From Candidatus Woesearchaeota archaeon (GTDB lineage Archaea > Nanobdellota > Nanobdellia > SCGC-AAA011-G17 > JACQNH01), in assembly GCA_016203175.1 (NCBI GenBank), contig JACQNH010000005.1, positions 1 through 39,690 on the forward strand: a DNA stretch of 39,690 bases, in the 5' to 3' direction. Below the pieces are notes generated by a model. The model made no database searches and was not told where the DNA came from. It saw only the letters and a list, made by a program, of their open reading frames with translations. This document shows positions 174 to 39,364 of this stretch, piece after piece (position 1 is the stretch's first letter; each line of letters starts with the position of its first letter). The position numbers were made by a program, and so were the translations under genes.

Positions 174-953
174 ATGTTAATTTTATCTTATTTTTACTAT
201 GGAATTGCAATTACAGGAACTCATGAAACAAGACATAATACATTTGTTAAATCAAGATCATTAAATAAAATTTTAGCTTACTTTTTCTCAGATTTTTGGG
301 GGGGTCAAAGTAATGAATGGTGGTATCACAGACACGTAAAAGTACATCATATTCACACAAATATTACAGAAAAAGAAGAAGCAGTTTTCTATTACCCATG
401 GATAAATAAATACGTATATTTTTTTATTCTTCCTTATTTAGTAATGTTTTGGCTATTAATCCATAGCATTTATTTTTTATGGGGAGAGTGGAAAAAATTA
501 TTTTTATTTTTAATGATAAATTTAACAGGCTGGATTTTTCATGTTTATCTTTTTAGCCTAATACTACCATTACAATACGCATTTATTTCAGTTTTCATAA
601 TGCGTAGTTTGTTTGCACCATTATTTATGCAATTAGCAGTCTTTAATCATATTGGACTAGAAGATCCAAAAACAAGACTCCCTTGGTTATCACATCAAAC
701 AAAAACAACTAGGAATTTAAAAAAGCACTGGTTCTTAAATGGAATAGGGGGGAATGCATTTGTTGAGTGTCACATAGAACATCATTTATTCCCTAGTATC
801 TCAAATAGATTACTTTCAAAAATAAAACCACTAATAATTAAACAACTTAAAAAAGAAGGTTATAAGTACATAGAAGAAAGCTACTGGGATGTTTTAACTA
901 AGTGTTTAAAATACTATGATGAAATATTCAAGAATACAAATATAGCTATCTAA
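174..953 (+). CDS. Membrane fatty-acid desaturase/hydroxylase family protein (three His boxes), possibly N-terminally truncated
   Basis: His boxes in canonical order: HETRH (res 17-21), HRHVKVHH (res 52-59), HIEHHLFP (res 200-207), with hydrophobic segments between them. The first box lies unusually close to the Met. The frame stays open upstream to nt 93 but contains no ATG/GTG/TTG. Confidence 0.7.
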   Translation: MLILSYFYYGIAITGTHETRHNTFVKSRSLNKILAYFFSDFWGGQSNEWWYHRHVKVHHIHTNITEKEEAVFYYPWINKYVYFFILPYLVMFWLLIHSIYFLWGEWKKLFLFLMINLTGWIFHVYLFSLILPLQYAFISVFIMRSLFAPLFMQLAVFNHIGLEDPKTRLPWLSHQTKTTRNLKKHWFLNGIGGNAFVECHIEHHLFPSISNRLLSKIKPLIIKQLKKEGYKYIEESYWDVLTKCLKYYDEIFKNTNIAI

Positions 954-5943: not shown

Positions 5944-6052
5944 TCCCTTATATATTTAGTTTTAAATTTGATTCCTCAGATTTTGGATAACTTTAAAAAC
6001 AATTTTTACATTCTTTTATTAGGAGATGATAAGAACGCTAGGTTCTTATTAT

Positions 6053-6139
6053 GGATCCGTAGCTCAGCCTGGATAGAGCACCGGCCTTCTATTTTAAGGA
6101 GAAAGTCGGGGGTCGGGGGTTCAAATCCCCTCGGATCCG
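6053..6139 (+). tRNA. tRNA-Arg(TCT) with 12-nt intron at 37/38
   Basis: Acceptor stem GGATCCG/CGGATCC, D stem GCTC/GAGC, anticodon stem CCGGC/GTCGG (one G-U), T arm GGGGG-TTCAAAT-CCCCT. There are 19 nt between the anticodon stem halves: a 7-nt loop CTTCTA..A plus 12 extra nt. Confidence 0.85.
6092..6103 (+). other. tRNA-Arg intron (about 12 nt, relaxed bulge-helix-bulge)
   Basis: Loop nt CTTC (6086-6089) can pair with GGAG (6098-6101). This leaves 3-nt bulges TAT (6090-6092) and AAA (6102-6104) and only a 5-nt terminal loop. The exact splice points are inferred. Confidence 0.6.
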
Positions 6140-6147
6140 CTTTTAAA

Positions 6148-6528
6148 ATGGAAAAGAAACCCGAGGAAATCTTATTGGACTTAAGCGAAACAGAAGAAGC
6201 GAGAATCCAAGCAGCTTTTAAATTAGAAAATAGATTCGATAAAGTAGCTATTGAAGCATTTAAAAAAGCCATTAAAACAGAACCATCCCCAATAGTAAGA
6301 CACGAAATAGCATTTTCAATGGGAGAAACAGGTTCAAAAGAATTAGTTAATCCCTTAATAGAAGCAATGGAAAATGATCCGCATATTTTCGTTAGACATG
6401 AAGCAACCTTAGCGTTAGGAACATTAGGAAAAAAAGAAGCAGTTCCTCATCTTAAAAAAATACTTAAATGTGGTATTCCAGAAATAGAAGAATCTGCTAA
6501 AATCGCTTTACAAAGGATAAATAGTTAA
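6148..6528 (+). CDS. Half-size deoxyhypusine hydroxylase (DOHH)-like HEAT-repeat protein
   Basis: 126 aa with two His-Glu motifs in HEAT helices: IVRHEIAFSMGETG and FVRHEATLALGTLG, followed by IEESAKIALQRI. The 186-aa track ORF (5968..) reads through tRNA-Arg; the ATG at 6148 is the first start downstream of the tRNA. Confidence 0.65.
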   Translation: MEKKPEEILLDLSETEEARIQAAFKLENRFDKVAIEAFKKAIKTEPSPIVRHEIAFSMGETGSKELVNPLIEAMENDPHIFVRHEATLALGTLGKKEAVPHLKKILKCGIPEIEESAKIALQRINS

Positions 6529-7321: not shown

Positions 7322-9016
7322 CTAAAATGTTCTAGGTGGGCTCTTTCTAAAGAACAATACCTTTACTAGACCTATAGCAATTAGTATCAAAACTATATCG
7401 GCTATAATCCATATTGCAGTATTATTCTCTTTGAAGAAGCTACTTGCATCAGAAACTTCTTTTGCTTCAACCTTGCTAGATTCAACGCTAACATCTACAG
7501 CTTGGCTTGTTACTACAGAATTACCAGCTTTAATCTCGACTACTGCTGAATTCTGTCCAAGTTTAGCATCATCTTTAGCAACTAAATTGAACACAACAGA
7601 CGAAGTAGCACCTGAAGTTAATGTTACACTCTTGCTTCCAACACTGTTTGCCCAGTCAGCATCAACATTAACAGTAAATGTTGCTTCCTGGTTTCCAGTA
7701 TTAACTACATTAACACCTAAACTTGTACTTCCGCCTTGTTTTACATCTATTTTACTAGATGCAAGAGACAATGTTGCAGATTGCTTTGAAGTTCCTGTAG
7801 TTCCAGTTATAGTTTTTACCCCAGGTTTATCACAATTTACATTCAAAACAACTGCCTGGTTATCACTTAATTTACTCTGGTCATAGAATGTTCTTACTTC
7901 TATAGTATAAGCTCCAGATTCTAAAGCAGCAAGTATGGGAATATTAAACAAAGAACTATCCCCATCATCCTCATCCAATTCTATATCTATTATCTTTTTA
8001 TTAAAGTTTAATTTTGGAGCATCTATTTCTATAGCAACTTCATCTTCATCAGATTTACCAATATTTACATAGCTAACTAATAATCTTGCATTACTAGCCT
8101 CACACCCAACTTTATCTGGACTTAATGTTGTCGACTTAATTGCAATTTCATGGCTTTCTCTTTCAACTTTAAATCTTATTTTAACTTTTTGACCATGCTT
8201 TGCATTAAAATCATCCTTACCTGATAAAGTCAATTCAACGTTGTAAGTTCCATCATCAGTATCTTCATCAACATCAAATTCAAAAGATCCTGTTTGAGTA
8301 TCATCAGAGCTAATATCAAAGTCATCATCTTCATCTAAATCTAATTTACTTTCTAAGCTCTTAACCTTAAATTCAACATCATCAATATCGACATTAGCAC
8401 TATCACTATACTCATTCTCAAGTTCAAATTCAATTCTTACATTATCACCAGGTTTAACATCTTCAACTTCATCATTTTCCTCATCAGCAGTTTGAGATTT
8501 ACCTCTAACCTTCCATTTAACACTTTTAATTGTCAACTGATTCTTTCTCTGCATATTAATATCAACAGAGCTGCTTGTTATTTTAGTTCCATTCTCAGTA
8601 GCATTAACAACTAAACTTCCAACCTTAAATGCAACAGCAGCTAAATTAGAATCAACAGCAGCTAAATTTTTAGGAGCTTTAACTCTAAATGTAATTGTAC
8701 CACTTGCACCTGCAGCCAAACTTGTTGGAGCACTATCAATTCCAACTGTACTTAATAAAATATCAGAACCAAAAGTAGAAACTGCAGTTACAGAATCAAT
8801 ACCCAAATTTGTAACAGTAAATGTTCCATTATTTGTAACCGTTAAAGTTCCAGTTAAATTAATTACCTGTGAACTAGTACTATCATGATTTGGATTACTA
8901 ACATCACTTGTACTACTACCAACAGTTAAAGTTCCAACTTGTAAAGCAGCACTTACGCTTGTAGCTAGTAAAACTAAAACAAATAAACTCAATAATATTA
9001 TTCTATTCATCTTCAT
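7322..9016 (-). CDS. Surface (S-layer-like) protein: Sec signal peptide, beta-rich repeats, C-terminal TM plus basic tail
   Basis: Start moved to ATG 9016 (MKMNRIILLSLFVLVLLATSVSA) because GGAGGTGGTGGGAG lies 8 nt upstream. Thr/Ser/Val-rich and acidic beta-type modules. Ends ...IWIIADIVLILIAIGLVKVLFFRKSPPRTF. Confidence 0.7.
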   Translation of the reverse strand: MKMNRIILLSLFVLVLLATSVSAALQVGTLTVGSSTSDVSNPNHDSTSSQVINLTGTLTVTNNGTFTVTNLGIDSVTAVSTFGSDILLSTVGIDSAPTSLAAGASGTITFRVKAPKNLAAVDSNLAAVAFKVGSLVVNATENGTKITSSSVDINMQRKNQLTIKSVKWKVRGKSQTADEENDEVEDVKPGDNVRIEFELENEYSDSANVDIDDVEFKVKSLESKLDLDEDDDFDISSDDTQTGSFEFDVDEDTDDGTYNVELTLSGKDDFNAKHGQKVKIRFKVERESHEIAIKSTTLSPDKVGCEASNARLLVSYVNIGKSDEDEVAIEIDAPKLNFNKKIIDIELDEDDGDSSLFNIPILAALESGAYTIEVRTFYDQSKLSDNQAVVLNVNCDKPGVKTITGTTGTSKQSATLSLASSKIDVKQGGSTSLGVNVVNTGNQEATFTVNVDADWANSVGSKSVTLTSGATSSVVFNLVAKDDAKLGQNSAVVEIKAGNSVVTSQAVDVSVESSKVEAKEVSDASSFFKENNTAIWIIADIVLILIAIGLVKVLFFRKSPPRTF

Positions 9017-9066
9017 TTTCTTAACTCCCACCACCTCCGATACTATTGCGTAGTTGTAACCCATAT

Positions 9067-10626
9067 TTAAATCTTACGGTTTAATCCTGATAATAATAAC
9101 AAGATTACTATTAATACTATTACAGTGCTAATTACAACATTAAAATTAATTTCTTCTTTTTCAACGCTCTCAACATCAACATTAAATAAAACACTATCTA
9201 TTATATTCCCATCAATAATTAAGTTAACAACACCGCTAAAACTACCTTGAACAACATCTTTAGCTTTAATAAAAAAATAATTAGTTTTACTTTCACCAGG
9301 ATTTAATTGAATTAAACTATCACCAGATATTAAATCTCCAAATTTAGCTATATTTTGAACATCCAAGTTAATTATTTTACTAATCTTTAAATCATTCTTA
9401 ACATTTATTGCTAAACTAAAGCTATCCCCAGATTTAACATCTATATTCTTTTGAATTAAACTTCCTTTAATACCTGAAACTTTAATTAACTCTGTAGGCT
9501 TTTCCTTATCGCAATTTACAATAAAAGTTTTACTTTTCTTATTGCTAGAACCATCAAAAACAACCTCCCCTTCTAAAACATAATTTCCAGGCTTAGCATT
9601 TTGAGGTATTTTAACATCAAAGTTTATAACCTCCTCATTTTTAGGGTCTTTATCATTACTATCTGCATCCTTCAATCTAATTTGATTAGAAACTTGACTA
9701 ATCCCTAATAATTCATTTAAAATTTTAACACTTACATCTTGATCCTTTTTACCAATATTTTCTATATCAAATTTAACACCTAAAATATCCCCGCATTCCA
9801 CAGTACTCGGAGTTAAACTCATTCCTTCAATAACAACATCGCTTGATTTTCTATCCAAATCCACATTAACGAATTCCTCATAACAATTTAATGTTTCCCT
9901 ATCAGGATCTTCTACCGCTTTTAAAAATAAAATATACTTGTCATTTTCATCAATCTCAGTTGTAGGAACAGTAATAAAAAATTCAAAATCTACATCAGCA
10001 CCATCTCTTATTTCTTTAACCTCACTTTTAGCCCTTACAATACTATCCCTTTCATCTATATTAAATAAATCAGCCTCAACTTGAACATCTAAATCATCAG
10101 TTCCAATATTCTCAACCTCTGCTTTAATCTTAATCTGATCTCCAGGATTAAAATTATCATTATTATCAGGGTCTTTAATTTTAACAATTAAATTTCCTTT
10201 TATCCCGTTACTACATCTATCCAAACCACTAGTAAGCAATGTCCTATCATCAACTTTTAATGTATATTGATTAATTATATTATCACTATTATTTACGCTA
10301 TTAGTAAAAGTAAAGCTTCCCTTATAATCCCCTAAATCAACATTAGTGGGGATATTAAACTTAAAACTAACTGCTTTAGTCTCAGAAGCAGCCAATATTA
10401 TATCACTAAAACTTCCAGGTGTTATTATTGTATTATTATTTTTTAAGTCACTTGCTGCAACTTTTAATGTTATACTAGAATTGCCATTAACAATAGTTGC
10501 ATTGATCTGTACGTCTTCACCCCTAAAACCAGAACCAACTACAAAATTATTAATAGAAAAACTAGCAGCGCTAACTAAACCACTAAATAAAACAACTAAA
10601 ATCAAAGTTATCGTTATTAATCTCAT
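9067..10626 (-). CDS. Surface protein, paralog of the downstream gene (signal peptide, C-terminal TM plus basic tail)
   Basis: Signal MRLITITLILVVLFSGLVSA (ATG 10626 preceded by a GGGGGG run; alternative ATG at 10644). Shares module style with 7322-9016 (PGDQIKIKAEVENIG vs PGDNVRIEFELENEY; FIVNCDKEKP vs VLNVNCDKPG). Ends ...VVISTVIVLIVILLLLSGLNRKI. Confidence 0.7.
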   Translation of the reverse strand: MRLITITLILVVLFSGLVSAASFSINNFVVGSGFRGEDVQINATIVNGNSSITLKVAASDLKNNNTIITPGSFSDIILAASETKAVSFKFNIPTNVDLGDYKGSFTFTNSVNNSDNIINQYTLKVDDRTLLTSGLDRCSNGIKGNLIVKIKDPDNNDNFNPGDQIKIKAEVENIGTDDLDVQVEADLFNIDERDSIVRAKSEVKEIRDGADVDFEFFITVPTTEIDENDKYILFLKAVEDPDRETLNCYEEFVNVDLDRKSSDVVIEGMSLTPSTVECGDILGVKFDIENIGKKDQDVSVKILNELLGISQVSNQIRLKDADSNDKDPKNEEVINFDVKIPQNAKPGNYVLEGEVVFDGSSNKKSKTFIVNCDKEKPTELIKVSGIKGSLIQKNIDVKSGDSFSLAINVKNDLKISKIINLDVQNIAKFGDLISGDSLIQLNPGESKTNYFFIKAKDVVQGSFSGVVNLIIDGNIIDSVLFNVDVESVEKEEINFNVVISTVIVLIVILLLLSGLNRKI

Positions 10627-10727
10627 TTTCCCCCCAAAGTACAACTGCAGAGTGGTATAACTATATTTAAACCTTTCGAAAAAAGTTTTGAGAAAATATT
10701 ATAAATTAAAAAGTCAAAGCATTCTTT

Positions 10728-11969: not shown

Positions 11970-13265
11970 ATGAAATCCTGGTCCAGAAGAAAGAATATAT
12001 TGGCATTAGCGTATCCTAATACCGAATACTGTGGTGTTTATTCATTAGGTCTAAGAATAATCTCCAATCAAGTAAATTCAAAAGAAAATTGGTTTACAAC
12101 CCTACATTACACAGATAAAAATAACTTAAAAGCTGAAAACTTTATTGGTTTTTCATTTCAATACGAACCAGATTACCTAAATTTCTTTAATATGCTAAAA
12201 GAAAACAACATCCCATTAGAAAAAGAGAAAAGGCAACAAATAATATTCGCAGGAGGTCCTTGTATTAATCAGAATCCTTTCACTTTAAAAAAATATCTAG
12301 ACTTTATGGTTTTAGGAGACTCAGAAGTGGTTATACCTAAAATCCTAGAAGTATATGAAAGAACAGAATCCAAAGAAGAATTCCTAAATGAAATCTCTAA
12401 AATAATTGGCGTTTTTATCCCAGATTTAAATGAACCAACATATGCTGTTTTAAATAATTTAGATGAAGTTCCTTATCCAATAAAACAGGAATATCCAGAA
12501 AATTTAGATAAAAATTTTGTTTTCGGAAAAGCTTTACTATTAGAAATAGAAAGAGGCTGTCCATATAGATGTAAATTCTGCGTTATTCCAACAACATATC
12601 CTAAAATTCGTTATAGATCCTATGAAAAATTAATACGAATTATAGATGAAGGGATTAAATTAAATAAAGCAGATAAAGTTGCTATTTACGCAGCTTCATT
12701 CACACACCCAAAAAGAGCAGATTTCTTGAATTACATGCTTAAAAAAGGAATTAAGTTTATTGTTCCATCCACAAAAGTCGAATTCTTAAATGAAGAAATA
12801 ATGAAACTAATAAAAGAAAACGGTCAGACATCTTTAACAATAGCCCCAGAAGCGGACGAAATAACAAGAAGAGCGGTTAATAAATTCACTTCTGATAATA
12901 GATTCTTTGAATTTGCAAAATTAGCTAAAAAATTAAATTTCAAAAAAATAAAAATGTATTTATTATATGGAATCCCAAATCAAGAAATTAATGATTTAGG
13001 AAAAACCATAGACTTTATTAAAAAAATGAAAGAAATTTTCCCAAATATCTATCCATCAATTAATCCAGTAGTCCCAAAGCCAAAAACACAATTTGACGGC
13101 CTACCATTTAATAAAAAAATTCTAAAGCAGCAAGCTAAATTCCTAAAAAAAGAACTAAATAAATTAAATATAGATTATAAAATAGAATCAATCCGCACTG
13201 CTTATAATGAATATTTATTAGCAAATACAAAAGATTTAACGCCTGACTTCTTCAGAAGCTTTTAA
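11970..13265 (+). CDS. Radical SAM protein with N-terminal B12-binding-like domain
   Basis: CPYRCKFCVIP (CxxxCxxC) after a Rossmann-like N-terminal domain (IIFAGGPC...VLGDSE). Confidence 0.7.
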   Translation: MKSWSRRKNILALAYPNTEYCGVYSLGLRIISNQVNSKENWFTTLHYTDKNNLKAENFIGFSFQYEPDYLNFFNMLKENNIPLEKEKRQQIIFAGGPCINQNPFTLKKYLDFMVLGDSEVVIPKILEVYERTESKEEFLNEISKIIGVFIPDLNEPTYAVLNNLDEVPYPIKQEYPENLDKNFVFGKALLLEIERGCPYRCKFCVIPTTYPKIRYRSYEKLIRIIDEGIKLNKADKVAIYAASFTHPKRADFLNYMLKKGIKFIVPSTKVEFLNEEIMKLIKENGQTSLTIAPEADEITRRAVNKFTSDNRFFEFAKLAKKLNFKKIKMYLLYGIPNQEINDLGKTIDFIKKMKEIFPNIYPSINPVVPKPKTQFDGLPFNKKILKQQAKFLKKELNKLNIDYKIESIRTAYNEYLLANTKDLTPDFFRSF

Positions 13266-13413: not shown

Positions 13414-13992
13414 TTATTGAAAATAACTTAAAAGATAATTTAAAACAATTTTAAAATATTTCAAAAATAAATAACCGATTACATATCCAATTAAACCTCC
13501 GAATAAAACATCACTCAAATAATGAAATCCAGCATATACCCTTACACTAGCAATTAAAATACAAACTAAAATCCAAAAATAACCCAATCTTTTATCAACA
13601 CTAAAAATAAATGGAAGCATGGAAAAAGCTGCAGCAGTATGCCAACTTGGAAAACTTTTATTAAAAGACATAAACCCATAATCGAAGCCATTTAATTTAG
13701 CATTCTCTAAAACTTCAAAAGGTCTTGTACGATTAATAAAGTATTTTAAAACAAGTATAACAAACCCAGTAGTTAAAAATGCAAAAATAGCACTTAAAAT
13801 CTTCTTCTTATCGCTAAAATACAAAAGTAAAGAAGTAAAAATCAATAATAAATAGTCTTTTAAAATCAAATAAGCATATTTAAAAAATATATTCAAAGCA
13901 TCAAATCTAAAACCAAATATAAAGGTGCTAAAGCTTTTATCTATAAAAAAACTTAAAGCAATCAACACAAGTACTAATATAATATAAATCAT
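13414..13992 (-). CDS. PAP2-family lipid phosphate phosphatase
   Basis: All three PAP2 motifs are present: KYFINRTRP (KxxxxxxRP), PSWH (PSGH-like), SRVYAGFHYLSD (SRxxxxxHxxxD). The track start at 14049 is TTG, only 4 nt from the divergent ATG at 14054; the first ATG is 13992. Confidence 0.8.
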   Translation of the reverse strand: MIYIILVLVLIALSFFIDKSFSTFIFGFRFDALNIFFKYAYLILKDYLLLIFTSLLLYFSDKKKILSAIFAFLTTGFVILVLKYFINRTRPFEVLENAKLNGFDYGFMSFNKSFPSWHTAAAFSMLPFIFSVDKRLGYFWILVCILIASVRVYAGFHYLSDVLFGGLIGYVIGYLFLKYFKIVLNYLLSYFQ

Positions 13993-14053
13993 CAAATACA
14001 ACTTAAAAAATGGATATAAAAATGTTTTTATACCTAATTTAATCCCCAATAAA

Positions 14054-15109
14054 ATGATAATTAACTTACTAACCTCATTAAGATTAATATTAATACCTTT
14101 TATATTCTATCTTTTAATAAAATCTGATTTTAAGATAGCTTTAACCTTAATAATTATAGCAGCTATAACAGATATAATTGATGGATTTTTAGCAAGAAAA
14201 TTCAAAAAAACAACGAAATTAGGAAAATTTTTAGATCCTTTAGCAGATAAATTATTAATATTTTTTATTTTAATTGCATTATTACTAAACAAAAATTTAT
14301 CTTTAGTAGAATTATTTCTTGTTCTAATAAGAGACGTTGCTGTTGCTCTATTTGTTCTTATAATGGCTATAGAAAAAAGAATTAAAAAAATAGATTTGCC
14401 TTTAACAAAAACAGGAAAATTTACAACATTCTCGCAGTTTTTATTTATTTTAAGCATTTTATTAAACATAGTTTATTTAAGAGAACTATTCCTGATTACA
14501 ACAATAATCTTATCTATAACCGCAACAATAGAATATGGTAAGAAAGTTAAAAAATATATTTTCTCTTTAAAACAAACATCAATAGAAATTTTAAAATTCT
14601 TTTTAGCTTTATTACTAGCAATTTTCTATAAAGTTTTTTACATAATTTTTACACCTTTAACAATATACCCAACATATATAATCTCAAATATTTTTTTCAA
14701 CGCAAGTTTAGTAAATAAATTTTTAATTATAGATTCCATAAAATTTGAATTCATTCCAGCTTGTATTGCAGCCTCAGCATATTTCCTTTTAACAATACTA
14801 ATATTAACTACAAAAGGAATAGATTTTAAAAAATGCCTTAAATTATTCATCATAGGTTCATTACTAATACTAATTGCAAATATAATAAGATTAGAATTCT
14901 TAATATATTTATTCAAAAATTATTCAATAGAAGTATTTAACACCATACATTTGATTATCTGGAAAGTCTTAGCTAGCATCTATGTTGTTCTAGTTTGGAT
15001 ATTCTTAACAAAATACTACAAAATAAAAGAAATCCCAGTTATTTCAACTTTAAAACAATTTTATAAACTATCTTTATTTAAAAAAAAGCTACCTAAGTAC
15101 AAATCTTAA
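14054..15109 (+). CDS. Fusion protein: CDP-alcohol phosphatidyltransferase (N) plus exosortase/archaeosortase-like domain (C)
   Basis: Res 40-65, DIIDGFLARKFKKTTKLGKFLDPLAD, is an exact D-x2-DG-x2-AR-x8-G-x3-D-x3-D match. From about res 175 a second polytopic module carries C237 (IPACIAAS), R279 (IANIIRLEF) and H299 (NTIHLIIW) in the order and spacing expected for exosortase-family transpeptidases. Confidence 0.6.
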   Translation: MIINLLTSLRLILIPFIFYLLIKSDFKIALTLIIIAAITDIIDGFLARKFKKTTKLGKFLDPLADKLLIFFILIALLLNKNLSLVELFLVLIRDVAVALFVLIMAIEKRIKKIDLPLTKTGKFTTFSQFLFILSILLNIVYLRELFLITTIILSITATIEYGKKVKKYIFSLKQTSIEILKFFLALLLAIFYKVFYIIFTPLTIYPTYIISNIFFNASLVNKFLIIDSIKFEFIPACIAASAYFLLTILILTTKGIDFKKCLKLFIIGSLLILIANIIRLEFLIYLFKNYSIEVFNTIHLIIWKVLASIYVVLVWIFLTKYYKIKEIPVISTLKQFYKLSLFKKKLPKYKS

Positions 15110-15679
15110 AAGAAGATGACTAACCAGACTTTTAAAAGCCTTAAAATATTGTCCTTCCTCTTTAAACACTTCAGCCAAAAACAAATCTGAAAATTTTAAA
15201 GTATTCTCAACAAATATTTTTTTGGGAGTACAAATAGACTTATAATTTGGCATTCTTATCAAATCCCGAGCATGCTTTTTTGCTTCTTGAAAATCCTTAA
15301 CAGCATTTTCAAGTAGATTATTATCCTTATTAATTAAACCAGTTGCATAATAACATCTACCCAGACCAAACCAAGCAGGAGGATTTACACAATAATCTTT
15401 AACCTCATGATCAAGTATTCCACTAGCATTATCATAAACTTCCAACTCTAAAAAGGACAATCCTAAAATAGTCCTATCATCATGATGAGTCCACCCTGTC
15501 ATAGAGGTATTATCCAATTTTTCCTCATCATGTAATAATATTACCTTAAAATTCCTAAGTGCATTAAAATATTCTCTGCCTACAAAATAATTTATACCCA
15601 ACAACCTTCTAGCAACTATATTCCCTGGTTCTTTTCTTAATAAATCCCTTAAATAATCTATTTCCTTTTCCCTTAGCAT
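15089..15679 (-). CDS. Hypothetical protein, possibly TPR-like helical repeats
   Basis: Helical-repeat-like segments (ARRLLGINYFVGREYFNALRNF; WFGLGRCYYATGL...AVKDFQEAKK). The 3' end overlaps the convergent gene by 21 nt. Confidence 0.4.
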   Translation of the reverse strand: MLREKEIDYLRDLLRKEPGNIVARRLLGINYFVGREYFNALRNFKVILLHDEEKLDNTSMTGWTHHDDRTILGLSFLELEVYDNASGILDHEVKDYCVNPPAWFGLGRCYYATGLINKDNNLLENAVKDFQEAKKHARDLIRMPNYKSICTPKKIFVENTLKFSDLFLAEVFKEEGQYFKAFKSLVSHLLLRFVLR

Positions 15680-15703: not shown

Positions 15704-16300
15704 TTAAACTTTTTGAGAATTTTTTCTTTTGTACACCCTATAAATAAACCAAATAACAAAAATTAAAACAACTAATACTATACTCAATACATCAAACTTC
15801 CCATCTAAATAATCCAAGAAACCTTGACCCAAATACATTACAGATACCCCAACTAGAAAAAATCTTAATCCACGGCTTAAAAAAGACATTAAAACAAATT
15901 TCCAAAAATTTATATAAAATACACCACCAGCAATTGTAAAAACCTTATAGGGAATTGGAGTAAAACCAGCAATAAAAATCGCCCAGCTTTCATATTTATT
16001 AAACAAATTATGAACTTTCATAATTTTCTCTTCCTTAACAAATCTTCTCAATAAAGTCTCTTCCCCTACAAAACCAATTAAATAACCAAACATCCCGCCT
16101 AAAACACTCCCTATAGTACAAACTAAAGAAAAAAATAAAGCCTTTTCAGGCTCAGCTAATGCTAAAATAGCCAACAATAAATCAGGAGGTATAGGAAAAA
16201 AAGAACTCTCAATAAAAGCTAGAATAAATAAGCCAACCCATCCTAAGGGCTGAAAAACATCTTGAGTCCATTGAACTAAACCATTAAGCAAACCCATCAT
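15704..16300 (-). CDS. DedA/SNARE-associated family membrane protein
   Basis: N-terminal GLFILAFIESSFFPIPPDLLL plus later GxxPIPYKVFTI, typical of the DedA (YqaA-type) family. The track start at 16306 is GTG; ATGs occur at 16300 and 16297. Confidence 0.7.
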   Translation of the reverse strand: MMGLLNGLVQWTQDVFQPLGWVGLFILAFIESSFFPIPPDLLLAILALAEPEKALFFSLVCTIGSVLGGMFGYLIGFVGEETLLRRFVKEEKIMKVHNLFNKYESWAIFIAGFTPIPYKVFTIAGGVFYINFWKFVLMSFLSRGLRFFLVGVSVMYLGQGFLDYLDGKFDVLSIVLVVLIFVIWFIYRVYKRKNSQKV

Positions 16301-17171
16301 CAGCACCTTGCAAAATTAATAAATCTTCATTAGTCAATTTCATTCCTTTCTTCATTTTTTCCTGTACTAATTCTGCTTTTTTAGCAATTAAATTTTTCTC
16401 CCTCACCAATCTCATCTCTTTTTTTCTAGCTTTACTACTCTCAATAGAATTAACAATTTTATCTAACTCCCTTTTCTTGTTATTAAACAAACCAACATTA
16501 GCAGTAAAATTTATTTTATGCTTTTTATAGTTATTAAAAATATTTCTGTCTTCTTTTCTTAATTCATTAATTTTTTTAATTATTGTAAAAAACTTTTCAT
16601 ACTCAGCCTTATTTTTCTCTTTTAACTCAATAAATTTTTCATGATATTCATCGGCTTTTTGTCCAAATTCATCAATTTGCTTACTTAAAGAATTAATTTC
16701 AGATAAAATTTCAAATGCATCCTTATTTTCTTCATATTCTTTTTTAAGTTTTTTAATTTGCTCCATTACTTTCTGTTCTTTCTCAAAATTATAACCTTCA
16801 GTTTCTATTTTCAATTCTAAATCCTCAATTAAGTTTATAATTTGTTCAGGATTCTTCAAATTTTTCCTACCAACAGATTTATACTTATTTCTTAATTCTT
16901 TTACTTGATTCACTAATCCCTTAACTTGATCATTATATTTATTTCTTTCATCCCTTAACTCAAAAAAATTCAAATTGCTTTTATCGTTCTCTGATCTTAA
17001 ATTTCTACTCTCATTGATTAATTCTTTAATTTTAGCCTGAACTTCCTTTAATTTTTTAAATTCATGCTCTTTTAACTTTCCAGAAGTCTCTATATGGCCT
17101 CTAAGCTCATTTAATTCCCCCCTAATACCGGACTCTTCTCTAAATAATAAATTACCTTTTTTATTCATCAT
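16284..17171 (-). CDS. Archaeal coiled-coil protein (COG1340-like)
   Basis: 295 aa, almost entirely heptad-like Lys/Glu/Leu/Asn sequence. The size and style match the conserved archaeal coiled-coil family (recollection). Confidence 0.4.
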   Translation of the reverse strand: MMNKKGNLLFREESGIRGELNELRGHIETSGKLKEHEFKKLKEVQAKIKELINESRNLRSENDKSNLNFFELRDERNKYNDQVKGLVNQVKELRNKYKSVGRKNLKNPEQIINLIEDLELKIETEGYNFEKEQKVMEQIKKLKKEYEENKDAFEILSEINSLSKQIDEFGQKADEYHEKFIELKEKNKAEYEKFFTIIKKINELRKEDRNIFNNYKKHKINFTANVGLFNNKKRELDKIVNSIESSKARKKEMRLVREKNLIAKKAELVQEKMKKGMKLTNEDLLILQGADDGFA

Positions 17172-24405: not shown

Positions 24406-24798
24406 TTAAATTTTAGAAAAATCAATTCTTTTTAATCCTTTAACTTTATCAAAAGAAGCATCACTACTTACAATCCCATCAAATGCTAAAGCAAGTATAG
24501 CATGAATAGAATCAGCAGGACTTAAATTAAATTGTGAAGATAAAAAGATAGAAGCTTCTAAATCTTCAAAAGTATAATCAACGATATGTGCAATTGTCAT
24601 TATAGCCCTTATAGAACTTAATACTTTGACATTCAGATTATTTCTATAGAGATAAAACCATATTTCTAAACAAGTAAGACTAGAAGTAACAAATTTATAA
24701 TTTTTATTTGAATTCAAAAACTTTTTAGCATTATCTTTAAGCCTATCCTCTTTTTTTATAAGCGCCAAAAATATATCAGCATCTAAATAGATATTCAT
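24406..24798 (-). CDS. vapC: PIN-domain toxin (VapC-like)
   Basis: 130 aa with N-terminal IYLDADIF (acidic PIN residue), mid TCLEI and later SPADSIH acidic positions. Lies 1 nt downstream of an AbrB-type gene. Confidence 0.7.
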   Translation of the reverse strand: MNIYLDADIFLALIKKEDRLKDNAKKFLNSNKNYKFVTSSLTCLEIWFYLYRNNLNVKVLSSIRAIMTIAHIVDYTFEDLEASIFLSSQFNLSPADSIHAILALAFDGIVSSDASFDKVKGLKRIDFSKI

Positions 24799-24799
24799 G

Positions 24800-25045
24800 T
24801 TAAGAAAATACTAATTCAGCCTCCCGCTTCATTTCGACAGGTGTTTTTTTAGTCTTCACATTTAAAGAAGATAAAAATTCTACTGGATTCTCTATCCTTT
24901 CTAAAGGTCTCAAAATAATAGCCTTTTTCTCAATTTCGGCTAAAACCTGATTACCCAACCCTATATTCTTTCTTAATTTAATAGGTATATGTATCCTTCC
25001 TTTATTATCAATTTCCAACAAAGAATATTTAATCCCACTTTTCAT
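24800..25045 (-). CDS. vapB: AbrB/SpoVT-type antitoxin (VapB-like)
   Basis: GRIHIPIKLRKNIGLGNQVLAEIEKKAIILRP is a swapped-hairpin AbrB motif. The track start at 25063 is GTG and overlaps the TATA motif. The ATG at 25045 lies about 24 nt downstream of the TATA centre, which would give a leaderless mRNA. Confidence 0.7.
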   Translation of the reverse strand: MKSGIKYSLLEIDNKGRIHIPIKLRKNIGLGNQVLAEIEKKAIILRPLERIENPVEFLSSLNVKTKKTPVEMKREAELVFS

Positions 25046-25061
25046 AAAATTTAAAATTCCC

Positions 25062-25074
25062 ACTTATATATAAA
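25062..25074 (-). promoter_or_regulatory. TATA-box/promoter motif TTTATATATAAGT
   Basis: The reverse complement of acttatatataaa is tttatatataagt. The same 13-mer occurs at 31277, 31745 and 38201(-). Confidence 0.55.
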
Positions 25075-36555: not shown

Positions 36556-38115
36556 TTACTTCCCAGTCTTTTTCTTTAATTTATCTTTTAAATTTAATTT
36601 CTTCAATAATTCCTTATATCTATTTCTAATTGTTACTTCAGTAATTCCAGCTACATCAGCAACTTCCCTTTGAGTCCTTTTTTCATTGTTCATTAAAGCA
36701 GCAACATATAAACTTGCAGCAGCAATCCCTGTAGGACCTCTTCCACTAGTTAATTCTGCATCTTGAGCCTTTTCTAAAATCTCAACAGCAGTGCTTTGAG
36801 TTTCAGGACTTAATCTTAAATTAGAAGCAAATCTAGGTATAAAATCAACAGGGTTTGAAGGTAATATTCTCATTCCTAATTCTCTTGTTACAAATCTATA
36901 AGTCCTTCCAATTTCTTTCTTATCAATTCCAGAAGCTTCACTTAATTCATCTAATGTTCTTGGAACCTCATGTCTTCTGCAAGCAGCATATAAAGCACCA
37001 GCAACAACACTCTCCATACTTCTGCCTCTTACTAAACCCCTTTGAACTGCCATAGTATAAACCCTAGCAGATTCTTCCTCAACGCTCTTAGGTAATTTTA
37101 AAAAAGAAGCAACTCTTTTTAATTCAGCCAAAGCTAATTTTAAATTCCTTTCAATTGCAGTACTTATTCTATATTGCCATTTCCTTAATCTAAAAAATTT
37201 ATTTCTCTCTTTACTTCCTAATTGGTATATATCTGCCTTTTGACCAATATCAGTTCCTAAACCACGATCAAACTTAGTATTATGCAAGAAGATATTTCCT
37301 CTCCCACCTACAAAATTCTCATAGCCTGGAACTGTTAAATCATAAGCATAACCAGAAACAGACTTAACTTTTCTAATGCCCCTAACTCTTAAATACAAAA
37401 ATGGAGCTTTAGCTAATTTCAATAATTTGTTGTCATGGTACTTATTAGCAATTTTTACTGCAAGACCTCTTTTAATTCTAACCCTTTTTCCAAATTTCCA
37501 GTTTTTCTTATCCAAAATGTTAATTTCCCTTACATTTTCTATTAATGGAATCTCTTTAGGGGCTACTAAAAATTGTCCTTCTTTCAATTTATCTACTCTA
37601 ACACCAACTACCTGATTATCTTTAACAGTAAAAACACTGTGACTCCCTGTAACCCTAACCTTTTTTCCGCTTTCCAATAGTATCTCATAAACCTCATCAG
37701 CAGGATGTCTTGAAACCTCACTAATTTTCCTAAAATCTATATTATAATCTCCATCAAAAGACACACACTCAAAACCTTCAACAGGTACATATTCTATAAT
37801 TCCATCTTTCTTCAAATAGCTATTTTTTTCAGCCATTAACTCATCAACAAATTTACCAATTTTAACAATCTGTATTTTATTTTCACTTTTTATCACAACT
37901 GGCTCATCATAGTCTACAGAATAACTCATAGGAGCTCCAGTTCTTCTTCTTTTAGCAGCTTGATCAGAATCAAATTCAGTCCATTCTTGACCTAAATCAA
38001 CCATTCTTTCTTCAACTACTAAACCACAATCTCTACAGATCATTTCTCCACGATCCTTATTAAGAATTAAGTTTATGCTCCCGCATTCCGGACACTTTTT
38101 AATATAGCCTGCCAT
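36556..38115 (-). CDS. tfb: Transcription initiation factor B (TFB/TFIIB) interrupted by a mini-intein
   Basis: Zn ribbon CPECG...CRDCG, B-reader GQEWTEFDSDQAAKRRRTGAPMSY, and two cyclin repeats at the C-terminus. A 214-aa insertion sits between ...PMSY and TKFDRGLGTDIG. Confidence 0.9.
   Translation of the reverse strand: MAGYIKKCPECGSINLILNKDRGEMICRDCGLVVEERMVDLGQEWTEFDSDQAAKRRRTGAPMSYSVDYDEPVVIKSENKIQIVKIGKFVDELMAEKNSYLKKDGIIEYVPVEGFECVSFDGDYNIDFRKISEVSRHPADEVYEILLESGKKVRVTGSHSVFTVKDNQVVGVRVDKLKEGQFLVAPKEIPLIENVREINILDKKNWKFGKRVRIKRGLAVKIANKYHDNKLLKLAKAPFLYLRVRGIRKVKSVSGYAYDLTVPGYENFVGGRGNIFLHNTKFDRGLGTDIGQKADIYQLGSKERNKFFRLRKWQYRISTAIERNLKLALAELKRVASFLKLPKSVEEESARVYTMAVQRGLVRGRSMESVVAGALYAACRRHEVPRTLDELSEASGIDKKEIGRTYRFVTRELGMRILPSNPVDFIPRFASNLRLSPETQSTAVEILEKAQDAELTSGRGPTGIAAASLYVAALMNNEKRTQREVADVAGITEVTIRNRYKELLKKLNLKDKLKKKTGK
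37279..37920 (-). mobile_element. Mini-intein in TFB (Ser1 ... His-Asn / Thr+1)
   Basis: Block A-like SVDYDEPVVI, block B VRVTGSHSVFTV (TxxH), block F YAYDLTVPGYENFV, block G GNIFLHN followed by Thr. No LAGLIDADG or HNH motifs. Removal restores RTGAPMSY-TKFDRGLGT, collinear with canonical TFB. Confidence 0.8.
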
Positions 38116-39178: not shown

Positions 39179-39216
39179 ATACTTTTAAATAAATATAATT
39201 CTTTAAAACATTTCAT

Positions 39217-39312
39217 GCGGGAGTGCCGGAGCGGCCAAACGGATCTGGCTTAGGTTCAATGAAGAAACCAGATGGCTTAGTGCCTACTAAGGTTCAAATC
39301 CTTACTCCCGCA
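39217..39312 (+). tRNA. tRNA-Leu(TAG) with 12-nt intron at 37/38
   Basis: Acceptor stem GCGGGAG/CTCCCGC, anticodon stem TCTGG/CCAGA separated by 19 nt (loop CTTAGG..A plus 12 nt), a long variable arm (TGGCTTAGTGCCTAC), and T arm TAAGG-TTCAAAT-CCTTA. Confidence 0.85.
39255..39266 (+). other. tRNA-Leu intron (about 12 nt)
   Basis: ttcaatgaagaa lies between G37 and A38. As in the tRNA-Arg intron it is followed by an AAA bulge before the 3' anticodon stem. The central helix CTT/AAG is weak. Confidence 0.55.
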
Positions 39313-39364
39313 AAATTTTCTATCGCTTCAATAAGTTTAAATAATATAAAATCAAATTCATTTT

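Follow-up and report, generated by a model that had tools for sequence, protein, structure and literature searches.

A gene on a contig from Candidatus Woesearchaeota, a tiny and uncultured archaeon, encodes, in one polypeptide of 351 amino acids (aa), a CDP-alcohol phosphatidyltransferase followed by a predicted pacearchaeosortase. The stretch analysed, 39,690 nucleotides (nt) of JACQNH010000005.1 (assembly GCA_016203175.1), is referred to here as the window. By analogy with the ArtA system of Haloferax, we consider it moderately probable that the sortase anchors an S-layer protein to a lipid, that the fused transferase supplies or enriches that lipid and that the products of two neighbouring genes, of the PAP2 and DedA families, assist. 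The gene and its two domains are as follows.

14054..15109, forward strand: fusion gene, 351 aa, ATG start, stop codon counted in; CDP-alcohol phosphatidyltransferase plus pacearchaeosortase.
14054..14575, forward strand: N-terminal PgsA-like CDP-alcohol phosphatidyltransferase domain, residues 1-174; six transmembrane (TM) helices, catalytic motif at nt 14171-14248.
14576..15106, forward strand: C-terminal pacearchaeosortase domain, residues 175-351; matches NF033505 and TIGR04178.

The open reading frame (ORF) is a genuine two-domain polytopic membrane protein, and there can be very little doubt about the identities of the domains. Residues 4-155 match the Pfam family PF01066 with 105.9 bits (cutoff 22; E 3.4e-30) over model positions 5-151 of 152. 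A first-pass annotation, made from the letters of the DNA alone, had recognised a complete D-x2-DG-x2-AR-x8-G-x3-D-x3-D signature in this half, and it is indeed present as D40-x2-D43G44-x2-A47R48-x8-G57-x3-D61-x3-D65 at nt 14171-14248, with all eight columns from D40 to D65 invariant in an alignment of 113 homologs. The proposal that the second half resembles the exosortases and archaeosortases was likewise borne out. Residues 179-339 match the NCBIfam pacearchaeosortase model NF033505 with 122 bits (up to 125) against a cutoff of 80, over model positions 5-165 of 167, and residues 233-318 match the exosortase/archaeosortase signature TIGR04178 with 36.5 bits (up to 38.6) against a cutoff of 23. 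The three candidate catalytic residues, Cys237 (nt 14762-14764), Arg279 (14888-14890) and His299 (14948-14950), stand where they had been placed and, together with Asn276 (14879-14881), are unchanged in alignments of 31, 27 and 52 sequences with identities down to 25%; the set of 52 includes sequences with identities down to 30%. To judge from these matches, the sortase half is a full-length member of the exosortase/archaeosortase superfamily, and specifically a pacearchaeosortase, one of its short subfamilies. Neither a profile search nor Foldseek returned a relative of this half in the PDB, and no solved structure of an exosortase-family protein was found.

That the ORF is an assembly chimera, or that a frameshift has joined two genes, can be regarded as effectively refuted; although the contig comes from a metagenome, nothing was seen in favour of an artefact. 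The frame is open and free of stops across the domain junction (nt 14550-14600), and the same uninterrupted fused ORF was met seven more times, in sequences belonging to different assemblies, in agreement with the single polypeptide read at first pass. Five of these are protein clusters (P0001-P0005; 333-346 aa, 62-91% identical) drawn from JGI, ENA, NCBI and Logan assemblies of different samples, and the other two are genome loci, L002 and L003, from a third-party annotation (TPA) Woesearchaeota metagenome-assembled genome (MAG) and a MAG labelled nzgw36. The linker is kept in fused homologs as divergent as 62% identity, and the P0002 contig is syntenic with the window.

An AlphaFold2 model of the whole fusion is a confident single chain (pLDDT 89.8, pTM 0.75), in which six transferase helices are followed by a basic linker and then by the sortase helices, with a small beta element preceding C237. 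Lysine and arginine residues number 29 in the predicted cytoplasmic loops and 6 in those outside, as would be expected of a transferase with both termini inside (N-in/C-in) and, after it, a sortase that starts on the inside (N-in). The predicted location of the transferase active site should be the cytosolic interface, as in Staphylococcus aureus PgsA (SaPgsA), where it lies at the boundary between membrane and cytosol (PMC8640168), while C237, N276, R279 and H299 of the sortase should be in the outer leaflet.

The first-pass annotation had compared the transferase half with PssA of Haloferax. Processing and lipidation of ArtA substrates there require the CDP-alcohol-family enzyme PssA together with PssD, and in Methanosarcina artA, pssA and pssD are juxtaposed (PMC7157517). 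The comparison holds for the family, PF01066, but not for the type of enzyme: the N-domain is PgsA-like rather than PssA-like, and scores 33.8 bits against a cutoff of 200 with NF038086 (anchor_synt_A, protein sorting system archaetidylserine synthase). Its closest relative in the PDB is the phosphatidylglycerol-phosphate synthase SaPgsA (7drj/7drk), found by sequence with an E-value of 2e-10 for 7drj. By Foldseek the domain superposes on 7drj with a target-normalised TM-score of 0.73, a root mean square deviation of 2.8 Å and 29% identity, and is far closer to SaPgsA than to phosphatidylserine synthase, phosphatidylinositol-phosphate (PIP) synthases or AF2299. The eight catalytic residues and the six-TM fold are shared with SaPgsA; apart from being fused to a second enzyme, the window domain differs in the pocket for the acceptor. 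The phosphate of glycerol-3-phosphate is bound in SaPgsA by K83, R110, R118, K137 and Y181 (PMC8640168). When these ligands are mapped onto the N-domain by profile alignment, K83, R110 and Y181 are kept as K66, R93 and Y161, and the equivalents of K135 and T138 are also retained, but V101 and T124 take the places of Arg118 and Lys137.

This pattern of replacement is common to just 8 of the 113 PgsA-like homologs (P0008, P0026, P0027, P0033, P0048, P0050, P0061 and P0106), which carry I/L and T/S at the two positions. They score about 92-111 bits with the pgsA equivalog model TIGR00560, seven of them below its cutoff of 109.1 and one just above, and two are annotated by JGI as cardiolipin synthase. 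The acceptor of these altered-pocket enzymes may be something other than glycerol-3-phosphate. The nearest stand-alone relative of the N-domain is one of them, P0008 (39% identity), which has a bacterial gene context. The window itself, an archaeal contig, carries a fatty-acid desaturase gene (174-953, forward strand; PF00487, 73 bits), a hint that this DPANN lineage may make acyl lipids of the bacterial type and that the transferase may accordingly use CDP-diacylglycerol rather than CDP-archaeol.

Two genes that match NF033506, the PACE-CTERM-PROT family, lie 3.4-5 kb upstream of the fusion gene.

7322..9064, reverse strand: putative S-layer protein, predicted sortase substrate; NF033506, 125.2 bits against a cutoff of 110.
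9067..10644, reverse strand: second S-layer-like paralog; NF033506, 111.2 bits, barely above the cutoff of 110.

Candidate substrates had been proposed at 7322-10626. Both ORFs exist and match the target family, but the second ends at 10644 and a sorting signal is present in only one of them. Across loci, the C-termini of NF033506 family members consist of a spacer rich in Gly and Ser, then a TM helix and lastly a basic tail. The helix is opened by a motif, W-x-x-[GA]-(0-2)-[DN]-[IVL]-[IVL]-L, that is found in 41 of 81 ORFs of the family vs none of 3477 other ORFs. In the protein at 7322..9064 the C-terminal signal spans T549-F580 (nt 7325-7420), with the motif W552-IIADIVL at nt 7388-7411 and a C-terminus reading …AIWIIADIVLILIAIGLVKVLFFRKSPPRTF. 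The paralog at 9067..10644 has the C-terminal TM helix and basic tail without the W..[DN]..L signal, and the protein at 7322..9064 is the only one in the window to bear the motif.

Two further genes, one on either side of the fusion gene, encode membrane proteins of families that act on lipids.

13414..14049, reverse strand: PAP2-family lipid phosphate phosphatase, divergent from the fusion gene; PF01569, 82.8 bits; likely start ATG 13992.
15704..16306, reverse strand: DedA/VTT-family membrane protein, candidate lipid flippase; PF09335, 60.4 bits.

Bacterial PAP2 enzymes act on phosphatidylglycerol phosphate or polyprenyl diphosphate at the outer face of the membrane, and DedA proteins translocate lipids. 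The window PAP2 has all of the family motifs (K-x6-RP, PSWH and SR-x5-H-x3-D), which by the reasoning applied to the fusion protein are predicted to face outward. Its identity and divergent orientation are as first described, as are the distances between the start codons, 4 nt if the TTG at 14049 is used and 61 nt with ATG 13992. The latter is the more likely start because the 61-nt gap matches the 59-62 nt found in the fused loci L002 and L003.

Neighbouring genes were counted over 81 non-duplicate loci, using the evaluable subset for each feature and a Pfam spot check. An S-layer-like gene is found within 8 kb upstream of the sortase in 38/40 evaluable loci, often directly upstream and on the same strand. 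PAP2 is directly upstream and divergent in 25/75, DedA lies within 800 bp downstream in 32/77, and one or other of the two adjoins the sortase in 44/71. The earlier placing of PAP2 in a lipidation module thus stands in so far as PAP2 is a recurrent partner of the sortase, but it is tied to the sortase and not to the fused transferase, being found at stand-alone loci too. PAP2 and DedA belong to the sortase module and not to the fusion. A pairing of PAP2 specifically with the transferase, on the logic of PgsA followed by PgpB, is weakened by the equal occurrence of PAP2 beside stand-alone sortases, and further by the absence from the N-domain of two phosphate ligands.

Several observations on these loci may be added. 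The DedA gene overlaps or abuts the 3' end of the sortase gene in 28 of the 77 loci. Examples of the recurrent module are L011 (9365-10513), L018, L025, L046 and L061. In CP066683.1, a 736-kb Woesearchaeota chromosome, two S-layer genes, PAP2 and a stand-alone sortase are followed by the ribosomal P0/P1/L1 cluster, as in the window; at this locus (L001) the 3' end of the sortase gene is overlapped not by DedA but by a gene for a 155-aa Sm_multidrug_ex (PF06695) protein (8505-8972, reverse strand), which may be an analogous small membrane partner. Three loci with a pacearchaeosortase and an S-layer gene are filed under the names of bacterial MAGs (L031, uncultured Vicingus sp.; L057, Patescibacteria group bacterium; L078, 'bacterium') and are probably binning contaminants of DPANN origin.

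An alternative use for the neighbouring enzymes would be in glycosylation, with PAP2, DedA and perhaps the transferase recycling a polyprenyl-phosphate carrier for N-glycosylation of the S-layer and the sortase serving solely as a protease that takes off the signal. S-layer genes form the centre of the cluster, and the best NCBIfam matches, though weak, are to undecaprenyl-diphosphate phosphatases for PAP2 and to the undecaprenyl-phosphate transporter UptA for DedA. The motifs and the VTT domain are those of E. coli PgpB/YbjG and BcrC-type phosphatases and of UptA-type proteins respectively; the equivalog scores, however, fall far below their curated cutoffs. The N-domain, moreover, has the phosphatidyl-transfer motif and PgsA fold rather than the fold of a polyprenyl-phosphate sugar transferase, and for ArtA, the precedent, cleavage goes hand in hand with lipidation (PMC7157517). 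We regard this alternative as very improbable.

The reading that we favour, anchoring of an S-layer protein to a lipid with help from the fused transferase, takes the ArtA system as its model. Both combine an archaeosortase-family enzyme with a CDP-alcohol-family phospholipid synthase (PMC7157517) and an S-layer substrate whose C-terminal signal has three parts, namely a motif, a TM helix and a basic tail (PMC7157517, PMC9263693). They differ in that the link in Haloferax and Methanosarcina is genetic or by neighbourhood whereas here it is a fusion; in the signal, which is of the PGF type (PGF-CTERM) for ArtA and W-x-x-[GA]..[DN]-x-x-L in the window; and in the synthase, PssA-type with PssD in the one case and PgsA-like in the other. 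The critical residues of H. volcanii ArtA are Cys173, Arg214 and Arg253 (PMC9263693), and in the window sortase it is the invariant H299 that appears as the third residue in place of Arg253. Working at the cytoplasmic face, the N-domain would turn a CDP-activated lipid into an anionic glycerophospholipid, and so would supply, or locally enrich, the lipid used for anchoring. The sortase half would most likely recognise the C-terminal signal of the S-layer protein at 7322..9064, cleave it and join the C-terminus so created to a membrane lipid, as suggested by ArtA. PAP2, as an outer-face phosphatase, and DedA, as a candidate flippase, would probably prepare or recycle the lipid at the outer face. 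In one clade the gene of a synthase has come to lie between PAP2 and the sortase, in frame with the latter, so that head-group synthesis and the predicted S-layer anchoring share a single polypeptide. The domain identities, the conserved residues, the recurrence of the fusion, the substrate family with its signal and the conserved neighbourhood are observed; we infer the cleavage, the lipid transfer, the sidedness and any uptake by the sortase of what the N-domain makes. A functional coupling of lipid synthesis to S-layer anchoring is plausible, if short of probable.

Several results weigh against this reading. The first concerns the product of the transferase. The N-domain scores 77.6 bits with TIGR00560, under the cutoff of 109.1, and two of the five phosphate ligands of SaPgsA are replaced, so neither the acceptor alcohol nor the product can be assigned from the likeness to PgsA. 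The second is that an amine head-group pathway of the kind proposed for ArtA is missing from the window: Pfam scans of the long non-nested ORFs found no phosphatidylserine decarboxylase (PssD) domain, and no PssA-type enzyme is encoded there. The predicted placing of the two active sites on opposite faces is a third point, since a lipid made by the N-domain would need flipping before the sortase could use it, and this sidedness argues against simple direct channelling.

The remaining points concern how rarely the two enzymes are found together. When the sortase half was run exhaustively with HMMER against 1.84 billion representatives, 316 clusters matched, and architecture was taken from the best 150. 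Among these the fusion is seen in a single 50%-identity cluster, P0004, matched at residues 176-344; the members of the other 149 are 81-242 aa long, too short for a second domain. In 80 genome loci of Woese-, Pace- and Nanoarchaeota MAGs, a hidden Markov model (HMM) built from 114 CDP-alcohol transferase sequences detected no such enzyme within 10 kb of any stand-alone sortase (0/78 loci) and matched only the three fused genes, those of the window, L002 and L003. Rosetta-stone support, in the form of a separate transferase adjoining stand-alone sortases, is therefore absent across the 81 loci. The fusion is rare and restricted to one clade, and with no transferase nearby at the 78 loci the link does not hold for the family at large and may be incidental.

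An incidental fusion would mean that a housekeeping PgsA-like synthase gene beside the sortase lost its stop codon, leaving two domains that work independently and gain nothing except co-expression. The narrow distribution just described would be explained in this way. So would the opposite faces predicted for the active sites from the charge counts and the topology of PgsA (PMC8640168), and an N-in/C-in transferase can be joined to an N-in sortase without any change of topology. On the other hand, fusion and linker have remained intact down to 62% identity, the insertion lies exactly inside a conserved, lipid-related PAP2/sortase/DedA module, and another archaeosortase has an independent genetic and syntenic link with a CDP-alcohol-family enzyme (PMC7157517). 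On balance we think an incidental fusion somewhat unlikely.

A stronger version of lipid anchoring can also be envisaged, in which the altered-pocket transferase makes a specific lipid that the sortase itself attaches, with DedA flipping the lipid and PAP2 trimming it, so that the locus would be a self-contained protein-lipidation machine. The head group might then be of a glycerol or cardiolipin type and the linkage other than an amide, conceivably a phosphatidyl group on a protein hydroxyl. We consider this unlikely.

The sortase and target families are already catalogued. The window conforms to NF033505 and NF033506 in that its C-terminal 177 residues fit the model, the Cys, Arg and His are invariant, target genes lie nearby and the lineage is the same (Woese- and Pacearchaeota MAGs); it differs in that the catalogued sortases stand alone and are about 160-240 aa long, whereas the window protein has 351 aa with a 174-residue N-terminal transferase. 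What appears to be new is the fusion architecture. The first-pass annotation knew of no characterised example, and we too found no description of it in the literature searched, nor any publication using the name pacearchaeosortase; among the papers listed by a search joining archaeosortase with Woesearchaeota, Pacearchaeota or DPANN terms, none contains the word archaeosortase. Archaeosortases and the CDP-alcohol phosphatidyltransferase are named together in one paper only, a review of lipid biosynthesis. A partner of the PgsA type instead of the PssA type also appears to be undescribed, as do the conserved setting with PAP2 and DedA and the explicit signal at the C-terminus, and no description was found of a recurrent S-layer/PAP2/sortase/DedA module in Woese- or Pacearchaeota.

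Two other genes adjoin this cluster. Downstream, a small convergent gene overlaps the 3' end of the fusion gene.

15089..15679, reverse strand: TPR-like protein, convergent, overlapping the fusion 3' end; weak TPR matches.

It is conserved in the fusion clade only, with homologs in the window, L002 and L003 and the same position occupied in the P0002 contig. On the other side, PAP2 is adjoined by a B12-binding-type radical SAM gene (11970-13265, forward strand; TIGR03960-like with 150 bits, below the cutoff), which has the same place in the P0002 contig of the fused clade and has homologs in only 5 of 82 loci.

The gene content of the 39.7-kb contig includes TFIIE-alpha, TFB, ribosomal P0/P1/L1, S8e, Cdc6/Orc1 and Tyw1. 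The TFB (TFIIB) gene (36556-38115, reverse strand) holds an intein between the zinc ribbon and the cyclin repeats (PF14890, 75 bits). A PIN-domain toxin is paired with a MraZ/MazE-like antitoxin at 24406-25063 (reverse strand). An 87-nt tRNA at 6053-6139 (forward strand), found with Rfam and not by ARAGORN, falls inside the 5' part of the ORF at 5968..6528, so that this HEAT-repeat gene probably starts later. A 98-nt tRNA with a four-base anticodon at 39216-39313 (forward strand), found by ARAGORN only, may be an intron-containing archaeal tRNA.

How exosortases and archaeosortases fasten proteins to the envelope in chemical terms has yet to be settled, and apart from the ArtA-PssA-PssD system of Haloferax no connection with lipid synthesis is known from experiment. 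The fusion provides another, independent link in a different archaeosortase subfamily and with a different class of head-group enzyme, and it favours the general view that such sortases have phospholipid synthases dedicated to them. It yields testable predictions, in the form of a candidate class of lipid, a defined substrate with its signal motif and, as recurrent accessory proteins, PAP2 and DedA. Were the locus a self-contained lipidation machine, the lipid partner of an archaeosortase could be read directly from gene architecture, and that partner would not always be archaetidylethanolamine. The fusion also bears on how DPANN archaea, with their reduced lipid metabolism, build their cell surface.

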